Shown here: in pieces, positions 21,812 to 23,345 of the stretch
Layout of the letters: each line of letters opens with the position of its first letter
Numbering within the stretch: position 1 is the stretch's first letter
The notes under the pieces: generated by a model
What the model was told of the DNA's origin: nothing
The model's database searches: none
Seen by the model: only the letters and a program-made list of their open reading frames with translations
From: Chloropicon primus
Taxonomy: Eukaryota
Assembly: GCA_023205875.1 (NCBI GenBank)
Contig: CP060756.1
Coordinates: 868,001 to 932,000 of the forward strand
Reading direction: 5' to 3'
DNA length: 64,000 bases
Made by a program: the position numbers and the translations under genes

Positions 21812-22435
21812 ATGGAGTCCGAGAGAAGATCCACCATGTCCAGCCTCAAGGGACAGTTGTCCAACGTCGAGGGCTCTGTCAAGAGCATGAAGGCCGCCGT
21901 CGTTGTCGGTTCCGTCTTGACCGTTGCCTGCTTGGCCGCCGTCTTCGGAGTCACCATCCTCGCCAACGAGGTCTCCAAGGAGGTTAAGGTTTCCAACGGA
22001 ACCCTCACCTCCAAGAACGGACAGGCTGTCTTGACCACCAACATGTCCTACACCGCAAAGTTGTCCAAGTCCACCGCCATTGTCACCCTTGCTGATCAGG
22101 ACATGACCGGTACCTTCGCCGTCAACGCTGTTGTCACCCAGGGAACCAAGCTTACCCTCATCTGTGACGACGTCGTTGTCTCCCAGGAGGGCGGTGAGAC
22201 CGATGTCCAGGTTACTGAGGACTCGATGTTGAACAACCTGAGTGACAGTGTCGAGAAGAGAAGCGTGAACAATATGTGCAACTATTTTGGTGGTTGGAAG
22301 AGGTTTTGCGAGAAGTACACCACGAAGCTTATTCATGGTGCATATGACTACCTCTGGGACAACAGAAAGGAGATCTGGAACTACGGAAAGAGATCTAGTG
22401 CTACCATGGACATGTGCGGTGTCGCTTGCGCCTAA
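21812..22435 (+). CDS. Prepropeptide-like paralog 3 (207 aa): VEKR site and internal Y-GKR site
   Basis: Constant region differs by one codon (TCC vs GCC). Confidence 0.85.
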   Translation: MESERRSTMSSLKGQLSNVEGSVKSMKAAVVVGSVLTVACLAAVFGVTILANEVSKEVKVSNGTLTSKNGQAVLTTNMSYTAKLSKSTAIVTLADQDMTGTFAVNAVVTQGTKLTLICDDVVVSQEGGETDVQVTEDSMLNNLSDSVEKRSVNNMCNYFGGWKRFCEKYTTKLIHGAYDYLWDNRKEIWNYGKRSSATMDMCGVACA

Positions 22436-22736
22436 AGAAGATAAATTGTCTAAAACAAAATTCACCATCTCTGTTATAATATGATATTTATGCAAAAGTT
22501 GATTCTTTCGCAGACAATGTTGAAGTTTGCTTTGGTGGTGTTCAACGTTTTCTCGAGGTCGACTACGGCGCACAAGTAAGTTACTTGTAACCAGAGACTT
22601 GTTCCTGCTGTAGATTCCGTGCTTCCATCACATTGCGTTCAATTCGAAAAAGTAGTTACTTTTTGCATAAATATCATATTATATTTTAGACAATTTATCT
22701 TCTTTAGGGTGATAAATTAAATCAAACTCTGAAAAT

Positions 22737-23345
22737 TCAAGGTCGTACGCAACCGACACCGCACATGTCCATGGTAGAACTAGATCTCTTTCCGTAGTCC
22801 CAGATCTCCTGTCTGTTCTCATAGAGGTAGGCCTTCAACTTTCCAACAGCCCACCAGAATGGATGCCACTTGGGCAACTTGCTCACACTTCTGGTCTCAA
22901 CCTCCTGGATGAGGCTGTTCAAGATGGAGTCCTCAGCGATGGAGATATCGTTGGCACCGTTCTCGCTGACAACAACGAGGTCGTCGCAGATCATGGTGAC
23001 CTTGGTTCCCTCGGTGACAACAGCGTTGACGGCGAAGACTCCGCTGGTAGCACCGTCCTTAGAGTTCAAGACCACGGACTCAGTGTTGCTGTTAGCCTTA
23101 TCGGTGAAGAAGGAGTTGGTGGTCAAGACAGCCTGTCCGTTCTTGGTGGTGAGGGTTCCGTTGGAAACCTTAACCTCCTTGGAGACCTCGTTGGCGAGGA
23201 TGGTGACTCCGAAGACGGCGGCCAAGCAGGCAACGGTCAAGACGGAACCGACAACGACGGCGGCCTTCATGCTCTTGACAGAGCCCTCGACGTTGGACAA
23301 CTGTCCCTTGAGGCTGGACATGGTGGATCTTCTCTCGGACTCCAT
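22737..23345 (-). CDS. Prepropeptide-like paralog 4 (202 aa): VETR site and internal Y-GKR site
   Basis: Constant region differs by one codon (ACC); shares the last ~25 aa with paralog 3. Confidence 0.85.
   Translation of the reverse strand: MESERRSTMSSLKGQLSNVEGSVKSMKAAVVVGSVLTVACLAAVFGVTILANEVSKEVKVSNGTLTTKNGQAVLTTNSFFTDKANSNTESVVLNSKDGATSGVFAVNAVVTEGTKVTMICDDLVVVSENGANDISIAEDSILNSLIQEVETRSVSKLPKWHPFWWAVGKLKAYLYENRQEIWDYGKRSSSTMDMCGVGCVRP

Follow-up and report, generated by a model that had tools for sequence, protein, structure and literature searches.

Two of four neighbouring genes in Chloropicon primus encode an in-frame Gly-Lys-Arg (GKR), raising the question of whether their products are precursors of amidated peptides or whether the interest of this locus lies elsewhere. 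A preliminary description of the window (the whole stretch of DNA analysed, 64,000 nucleotides) took the two motifs for prohormone signals yielding Tyr-amide peptides of 41 and 32 residues plus a short CxxxC tail peptide. On reading the codons, both motifs are real and in frame, in paralog 3 at 22385..22393 on the plus strand (...RKEIWNY-GKR-SSATMDMCGVACA) and in paralog 4 at 22785..22793 on the minus strand (...RQEIWDY-GKR-SSSTMDMCGVGCVRP), each followed by the tail that had been quoted. A GKR alone would matter little, as it is widespread in algal secretomes; in Chlamydomonas, G(K/R)(K/R) was reported in 331 of 771 secreted proteins (PMC6313938). Based on our analysis, the finding worth following is a diversifying peptide library on an invariant carrier, rather than GKR.

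The four paralogs are intronless, alternate in orientation and span positions 19963-23345 of the window. Paralogs 1 (P0003; 19963..20565, plus strand; 200 aa) and 2 (P0004; 20836..21399, minus strand; 187 aa) join the common carrier to unrelated tails without GKR, of 45 residues in the former and of 39 residues, cationic, in the latter. In paralogs 3 (P0001; 21812..22435, plus strand; 207 aa) and 4 (P0002; 22737..23345, minus strand; 202 aa) the carrier is followed by tails of 54 and 47 residues. The first 198 nt are identical across all four genes. The protein of paralog 3 is 92% identical to a C. primus hypothetical protein, and the named matches of the four genes are annotated as hypothetical proteins throughout. 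According to a published supplement, the four correspond to orthogroups OG0000286-288 and 290, and in both sequenced strains every one of these has copies on chromosomes 1, 3 and 13; arginine methyltransferase-like genes adjoin the cluster on all three chromosomes (PMC12301720), indicating that the block was duplicated as a unit. In the window, a protein arginine methyltransferase-like gene (18439-19593, minus strand; Pfam matches weak) stands beside the cluster. At the 3' end of paralog 4, an insertion of about 40 nt (22708..22747, minus strand) changes the last residues to VRP and is absent from one DNA contig; an intron was considered as its source and dropped, because that contig, which is DNA, is without the same 40 nt. 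Contigs that had been guessed to be RNA were excluded as evidence for expression because their sequence extends upstream of the TATA-like box.

The window genes belong to a Chloropicon family of 255 relatives, found among 388 candidates. The set analysed comprised the best 120 of these 255 and the four window proteins (124 in total; P0054 repeats paralog 1). Among the matches listed, 114 tails were at least 25 aa long and fell into 43 tail types by average linkage (39-51 at other cut-offs), which replaced a discarded single-linkage clustering into 24 groups because the latter chained unrelated tails together. In the family layout, a near-invariant N-terminal helix holding a predicted membrane anchor is followed by a small beta domain, then by an acidic spacer and R-[SN]-[LMV]-[NS], and last by a hypervariable tail. 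In 37 full-length representatives of the tail types, identity to P0001 is 95% over residues 1-28, 97% over 29-51, 81% over 52-77, 33-37% over 78-153 and 5-9% over 154-207. In paralog 3 the near-invariant module (residues 1-77; 21812..22042, plus strand) has a predicted helix at residues 7-57 and, at 29-51 (21896-21964), the sole hydrophobic segment of the protein (Kyte-Doolittle 2.48), which looks like a signal anchor; cleavage after A51 is also possible. In the AlphaFold model (89 sequences; mean pLDDT 78.9) the helix spans 7-57, residues 90-134 form a five-stranded domain and the tail contains helices of low confidence; this predicted beta domain (22079..22213, plus strand) reaches a pLDDT of about 90-96 without a significant fold match. 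The spacer before the junction has a net charge of -3.4, and N-glycosylation sequons lie before the junction in 36 of the 43 types, and in none of the tails, among the matches listed. Judging by their sequence, paralogs 3 and 4 probably encode secretory propeptides.

Pfam searches with 89 members returned no match better than E 0.0017, and in NCBIfam the best E was 0.00024 (2 of 86 members), with a weak NheC match (best E 0.006) over the helix and anchor in 70 of 86. The weak NheC and LptA rows were taken as generic helix and beta-strand matches. Foldseek with two whole-protein models gave nothing at E<=0.001 (VIA best Z 5.4), neither the carrier nor the tails had a significant match in Pfam, NCBIfam or the PDB sequences, and the ESM Atlas gave no usable match. 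None of 34 pattern matches in viral contigs was confirmed as a relative. A longer fused form was not found among proteins of 640-2000 aa, which is weak evidence, lengths of 365-640 being covered solely by the profile search. No description of the family was found in the openly accessible literature, and the large-gene-family passages of both genome papers do not name it. The profile search, over 1.84 billion representatives, returned 72 matches. Distant relatives (P0171, P0174, P0175, P0178, P0179, P0183-P0186 and L012) have the same helix-anchor module with other payloads, such as Cys-rich repeats and Gly-rich tails, and most of these payloads stand after RSLL-, RKLL- or RRLL-type sites. The helix-anchor module may represent a wider carrier family.

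The boundary between carrier and tail carries a motif with the consensus V-E-x-R-[SN]-[LMV]-[NS]. In the window it reads K-R-N-T-Q in paralog 1 (20416..20427, plus strand), L-R-S-L-N without KR in paralog 2 (20956..20967, minus strand), R-S-V-N (V-E-K-R-S-V-N) in paralog 3 (22259..22270, plus strand), where a site-1-protease (S1P)-type cut is predicted after N153, and R-S-V-S in paralog 4 (22881..22892, minus strand), where Thr stands before the Arg and there is no KR. The junction-column Arg is present in 118 of 124 proteins among the matches listed, the other six being four fragments and two proteins with a deletion. Entropy is about 2 bits at positions +1 to +3 and 3.9 at +4, so that three residues past the Arg are conserved. 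Lys precedes the Arg in just 65 of the 118 listed. For the 114 tails among the matches listed, R-x-[LIVM]-z fits 96 junctions, the strict R-x-[LIV]-z fits 72 and R-x-[LIVMTA] fits all 114, while 61 junctions are dibasic. None of those listed lacks both a dibasic pair and R-x-[LIVM]-z: all 53 non-dibasic junctions fit the latter and all 18 that miss it have KR (Fisher P=0.036, 43 types). Therefore, a second, KR-cutting enzyme is possible, and could use GKR. Distant full-length relatives, picked and read by eye, have R-x-[LMT]-x in 17 of 19 cases, several as RSLL or RKLL (RRLL at locus L012) and none with a preceding Lys, and R-x-L is therefore likely the old signal with KR as a later, optional addition.

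The R-X-aliphatic-Z motif of S1P, an enzyme that also cuts its own RRAS (PMC8310232), is found in the window as RSVN and RSVS, and the published annotation of C. primus includes an S1P orthologue, A3770_04p31680, with MBTPS1 as its primary KO (PMC6731263 supplement). The best Chlamydomonas match of this protein is Cre14.g628800 (E 3e-164), which has been listed as SKI-1-type (PMC6313938). Asn at P1 of the junction is permitted by the published S1P motif, in which Leu is preferred. The junction thus appears to fit S1P better than a KR convertase, and the proposed 41- and 32-mers therefore probably have the wrong ends. Those lengths are correct if counted after R150 and R152, but given the conservation three residues past the Arg, the N-termini are more likely at 154 and 156, so that use of GKR, if it occurs, would leave peptides of 38 and 29 residues. 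A second S1P-like site, RR-[SN]-LL, lies near the C-terminus between two Cys in P0013, P0075 and P0207-P0220. It occurs in 16 of 114 tails among the matches listed versus 0.06 by shuffling, is also found in C. roscoffensis and is usually without Gly; a cut there would leave a few residues tethered by a disulfide.

The GKR copies of paralogs 3 and 4 are not independent and do not make two pieces of evidence. Both lie inside one recently copied 83-nt segment (22348..22430 on the plus strand and, inverted, 22748-22830; 92% identical), which also carries the CxxxC, and they are therefore one event. Synonymous differences between the two paralogs number 0 of 17 in residues 181-206 versus 10 of 39 in the pro-domain (Fisher P=0.023), and we infer that the segment was shared via recent gene conversion or tail exchange. 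A tree built from 45 chosen pro-domains places the GKR carriers in two groups, and the sister to the paralog-4 group is P0009, without GKR (support 95/59, not starred). In the GKR columns the nearest paralogs have HGKT (P0009) and YAAS (P0008), and both keep C-G-V-x-C. Accordingly, the CxxxC tail (C-G-V-A-C in paralog 3, C202-C206, 22415..22429 on the plus strand, with its paralog 4 counterpart at 22749-22763 on the minus strand) does not seem to need a cleavage site.

Nor does the frequency of GKR point to a signal. Shuffles of either protein contain GKR in about 3% of trials. Of the 114 tails among the matches listed, 5 contain GKR and these belong to a single tail type; counted by type, this makes at least 1 of 43 versus 0.65 expected by shuffling (P=0.50). 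Any amidation-type signal is found in 7 of the 43 listed types (7.15 expected) and a C-terminal Gly signal in 5 of them (4.6 expected). Within the window, 8 of 64 ATG ORFs of at least 150 aa contain GKR, with non-genes and paralogs 3 and 4 counted. A search with the tail alone returned two proteins, both from C. primus, and found no carrier of the GKR-type tail outside this species. GKR does not clearly exceed chance; it is weak evidence for amidation and probably an incidental feature inside one tail peptide.

Amidation may be restricted to this C. primus clade, where a basic-site convertase would cut after GKR, a carboxypeptidase trim K-R and PAM yield Tyr-amide peptides (38 and 29 residues, or 41 and 32) together with the short CxxxC tail. 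We regard this as rather unlikely. As a step added to S1P-type release it would be compatible with the main explanation, and in that form too it is doubtful. The processing enzymes, assigned from published annotation labels, are in part present. A search for PAM found A3770_19p83380 (PMC6731263 supplement), so this is not the PAM-free genome that would have counted against the preliminary description; PAM was already known in non-ciliated green algae (PMC6529398). A CPD-like gene, A3770_01p06200, is annotated along with zinc and serine carboxypeptidases (PMC6731263 supplements). For the kexin or subtilisin that had also been called for, the annotation offers several unclassified subtilisins; among the matches listed, the last of which are on chromosome 4, there is no KEX2, no furin and one weak PCSK5 label, and the SNP table has no basic-site convertase. 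The in-frame Gly with a dibasic pair and, by annotation, PAM with a CPB/CPD-like carboxypeptidase are as in classical amidated prohormones, in which the site is kept among homologous precursors; here it is found in 1 of 43 types among the matches listed.

Several observations are consistent with use of the GKR in this clade. It stays the same across seven C. primus proteins in which the front half of the peptide evolves rapidly, its two sites score -0.7 and 2.3 on the junction profile (median tail Arg -6.3), and the helix predicted for the tail is broken at 194-195 in the model. Other clades have a near-C-terminal second site of their own in RR-[SN]-LL (16 of 114 tails among the matches listed), amidation signals of mussel myticalins are confined to some subfamilies (PMC12294457), and Chlamydomonas VLE1 is cut and amidated at an internal Gly-Arg-Arg (PMC9351486). 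However, the GKR scores lie under every true junction (minimum 9.6) with no R-x-aliphatic fit, and the second site of other clades is preceded by Cys, Asp-Lys or Asn, and in one cluster 2 of the 16 members listed have Gly there. The single origin of the GKR copies, their lack of enrichment across the listed family members, the tail kept without GKR in P0009 and P0008, the tail search returning C. primus only and the lack of a kexin or furin gene among the annotation matches listed all weigh on the same side. In addition, the upstream site of paralog 4 is ETR-SVS, without KR, and the 41-mer proposed for paralog 3 has an internal KR at 163-164. What stands of the Tyr-amide prohormone reading is that the proteins are probably secretory propeptides in an alga with annotated PAM and CPD-like genes; the GKR itself is neither conserved nor enriched.

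If amidation does occur in the GKR clade, the C-terminal Gly or Gly-Arg of four other C. primus paralogs (P0005, P0128, P0129 and P0008) may be at least as likely a site, because the same route was shown in Chlamydomonas. There, 331 secreted proteins carry G(K/R)(K/R) (PMC6313938), yet the amidated peptides shared by all six samples of mating ectosomes numbered three, and two of these were amidated at a C-terminal GR/GRRR (PMC6919629). By this analogy, a C-terminal Gly would be a direct PAM substrate. Paralog 3 ends in Ala (window 22431), one base apart from near copies that end in Gly or Gly-Arg.

The tails themselves are about 40-70 residues long (42-71 counted from the Arg, among the matches listed). 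That of paralog 3 (22271..22432, plus strand) has 54 residues, four Cys and a net charge of +3, and that of paralog 4 (22740..22880, minus strand) has 47 residues, two Cys and a net charge of +4. Of the 38 Cys-bearing tail types among the matches listed, 37 have an even number of Cys (P=3e-10), a pattern suggestive of disulfides and an oxidising compartment. The hydrophobic moment exceeds that of shuffles in 32 of the 43 listed types (mean z 1.2, P=5e-7), with paralogs 3 and 4 modestly amphipathic (z 1.1 for P0001), and Trp makes up 4.4% of the tails versus 0% upstream of the junction. Net charge runs from -7 to +7 (19 positive, 2 neutral and 22 negative of the 43 types among the matches listed), and a plain cationic antimicrobial is therefore disfavoured. 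The window tails matched no Pfam peptide family or solved peptide. A likeness of the Trp/Lys-rich tails to leaderless bacteriocins was considered and set aside, as Pfam gave it no support.

Compared with a near-copy contig, paralog 3 has 18 differences, all of them non-synonymous (P=0.011); 9 of 12 tail differences lie within the first 12 tail codons and none in 191-206. For the tails of three paralogs pN is 0.138 versus a pS of 0.038, while pN in the pro-regions is 0.013, the contigs compared being paralogs or alleles. When paralogs 1 and 2 are added (10 of the 10 and 27 of the 28 listed differences, one 3-nt insertion being omitted), the pooled selection test on the tails yields P=0.009-0.085, a value that varies with the way multi-hit codons are scored. 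In each of three pairs, the two members share a pro-domain and have unrelated tails. In P0086/P0062/P0013 and P0017/P0048, a shared pro-domain carries unrelated tails and a shared tail sits on unrelated pro-domains, with the switch at the junction motif; for these swapped pairs, tail exchange and assembly chimeras are both possible.

Given the above, we propose that the carrier is cut at R-x-(L/M/V)-x by a site-1-type protease, releasing a hypervariable amphipathic peptide that is probably defensive; for the chain as a whole we put the chances at about even. The precursor would insert as a type II membrane protein with its C-terminus in the lumen, fold and form disulfides in the ER, and, once in the Golgi, be cut behind residue 153 in paralog 3 and behind residue 155 in paralog 4. 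Peptides of 54 and 47 residues would be released, with the CxxxC as part of the peptide, and their targets may be the membranes or receptors of bacteria, viruses, grazers or competitors. Their diversity would stem from duplication, gene conversion and tail exchange together with positive selection. The layer of this proposal that can be read from the sequences comprises the architecture, junction motif, hypervariability, even Cys counts, amphipathicity and excess of non-synonymous change.

A tail charge of -7 to +7 and a disulfide-type Cys pattern would also suit released peptides that serve as identity or mating signals, pheromone-like and received by receptors of the same species. C. primus keeps meiosis and flagellar genes (PMC6731263), gamete chemotaxis in Chlamydomonas uses a processed propeptide (PMC6919629), and an RWP-RK gene, its link to the family not shown, adjoins the cluster. 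We nevertheless consider such signalling unlikely: a single genome carries numerous unrelated tail types spread over several chromosomes, which resembles an arsenal rather than a mating-type locus, helices that are long, Trp-rich and amphipathic suit membranes, and no receptor is known. In another scenario the proteins remain at the surface or wall of the cell, with the tail either uncut or still attached, and form a variable coat or a decoy that protects from viruses and grazers. The 95-97% conservation of the anchor and the segment preceding it is beyond the need of a disposable leader, and rapid non-synonymous change fits escape from enemies. However, the protease-type motif lies exactly at the boundary in 114 of 114 tails among the matches listed and in distant relatives, and an acidic spacer precedes it, as in propeptides, making a tethered coat very unlikely. 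Defence by released peptides is thus the most likely role, ranked over signalling and over a coat. More tentatively, and with less confidence than in defensive release itself, we envisage a picoalgal arsenal in which dozens of unrelated membrane-active peptides share one invariant anchored carrier, with S1P release, tail exchange and some amidation by PAM, the carrier also occurring in distant eukaryotes with other payloads.

By analogy, the Chloropicon family appears to work like the peptide precursors of frog skin and mussels but fails their defining features. Precursors of the frog-skin dermaseptin superfamily (phylloseptins) likewise have a conserved front, an acidic spacer, a basic site and a variable amphipathic C-terminal peptide, with Gly as amide donor in some members; however, they begin with a 22-aa signal and a 24-26-aa propiece, whereas the Chloropicon front is about 150 aa with a predicted anchor and a beta domain (PMC3742671). 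The dermaseptin site is Lys-Arg, in contrast to R-x-aliphatic-x in Chloropicon, with KR in 61 of 114 among the matches listed. The Chloropicon tails also differ in being about 40-70 aa long, mostly with 2-4 Cys and half of them acidic, and no sequence similarity has been shown. Of the dermaseptin-type traits, the hypervariable amphipathic C-terminal peptide is found in Chloropicon, and the short signal and short propiece ending in KR are not. Mussel myticalins are similar as a hyperdiverse marine multigene peptide family with a dibasic site and, in some subfamilies, amidation signals, but place the mature peptide mid-precursor, lack Cys and carry a cleavable signal as well as an anionic C-terminal extension; nearly every myticalin keeps the dibasic site (PMC12294457), as against GKR in 1 of 43 Chloropicon types among the matches listed.

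Among Chlamydomonas PAM substrates, proGATI is also a green-algal secretory precursor in a PAM-bearing organism, but is a 94 kDa protein without a transmembrane domain and is amidated at a C-terminal GRRR, with neither similarity nor architecture shown to be shared (PMC6919629, PMC9351486); window paralogs 3 and 4 end in Ala and Pro. Substrates of S1P (SKI-1) resemble the family in having R-X-aliphatic-Z on a luminal segment, where the cut frees the C-terminal part (PMC8310232). Unlike them, the Chloropicon proteins have a hypervariable, exchangeable payload and mostly Asn or Ser at P1. Known S1P peptide substrates, such as plant RALF pro-peptides, have a conserved mature domain. Cathelicidin and conotoxin precursors combine a folded or conserved pro-region with a hypervariable C-terminal peptide under positive selection, and are soluble animal proteins. 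The conserved pro-region and hypervariable C-terminal peptide are thus shared with these precursors, their soluble nature and animal origin are not, and no cathelin or cystatin match was found in Pfam or in fold searches with whole-protein models.

To our knowledge, the means by which picophytoplankton resist bacteria, grazers and viruses are largely open, and the diversified peptide arsenals we know of are mainly those of animals, plants and bacteria. If the arsenal reading is true, an abundant marine phytoplankton would have an innate-immunity-like peptide system that is undescribed. The family offers precise testable peptides with predicted ends and masses in a cultured alga, as well as 43 or more mutually unrelated tail types that form a natural library. 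Calculated monoisotopic masses (reduced, free acid) are, for paralog 3, 6393.90 (54-mer), 4825.25 (38-mer), 5125.39 (41-mer) and 1245.45 (tail 13-mer) and, for paralog 4, 5615.77 (47-mer), 3763.95 (29-mer), 4037.08 (32-mer) and 1528.61 (tail 15-mer); an amide lowers these by 0.98 and each disulfide by 2.02. The family may also supply candidate substrates of algal site-1 protease and, for one clade, of the PAM of a non-motile alga.

Upstream of the genes, a TACGA-N8-TCGTA element lies downstream of a TATA-like box (21745..21762 and 19896-19913 on the plus strand; 21441-21458 and 23387-23404 on the minus strand). It lies about 30 nt past the box, and environmental relatives (L002, L004-L006) keep it while the 8-nt middle varies. 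The element is either a weak hairpin or a palindromic factor site; in five copies the 5' hairpin folds weakly (z -2.2 to +0.9), and it may be a DNA element. An extra copy of the family upstream region at 23509-23674 of the window matches 19716-19879 and ends after the TATA-like box without coding sequence, and is likely a remnant of a fifth copy. An RWP-RK domain protein (E 2e-12) is encoded at 24923-27037 on the minus strand, about 1.6 kb from paralog 4. On the other side of the cluster, a long low-complexity repeat at about 16066-18318 has long minus-strand open frames and a strong AT skew, which reaches 0.49 at 16001-18000.
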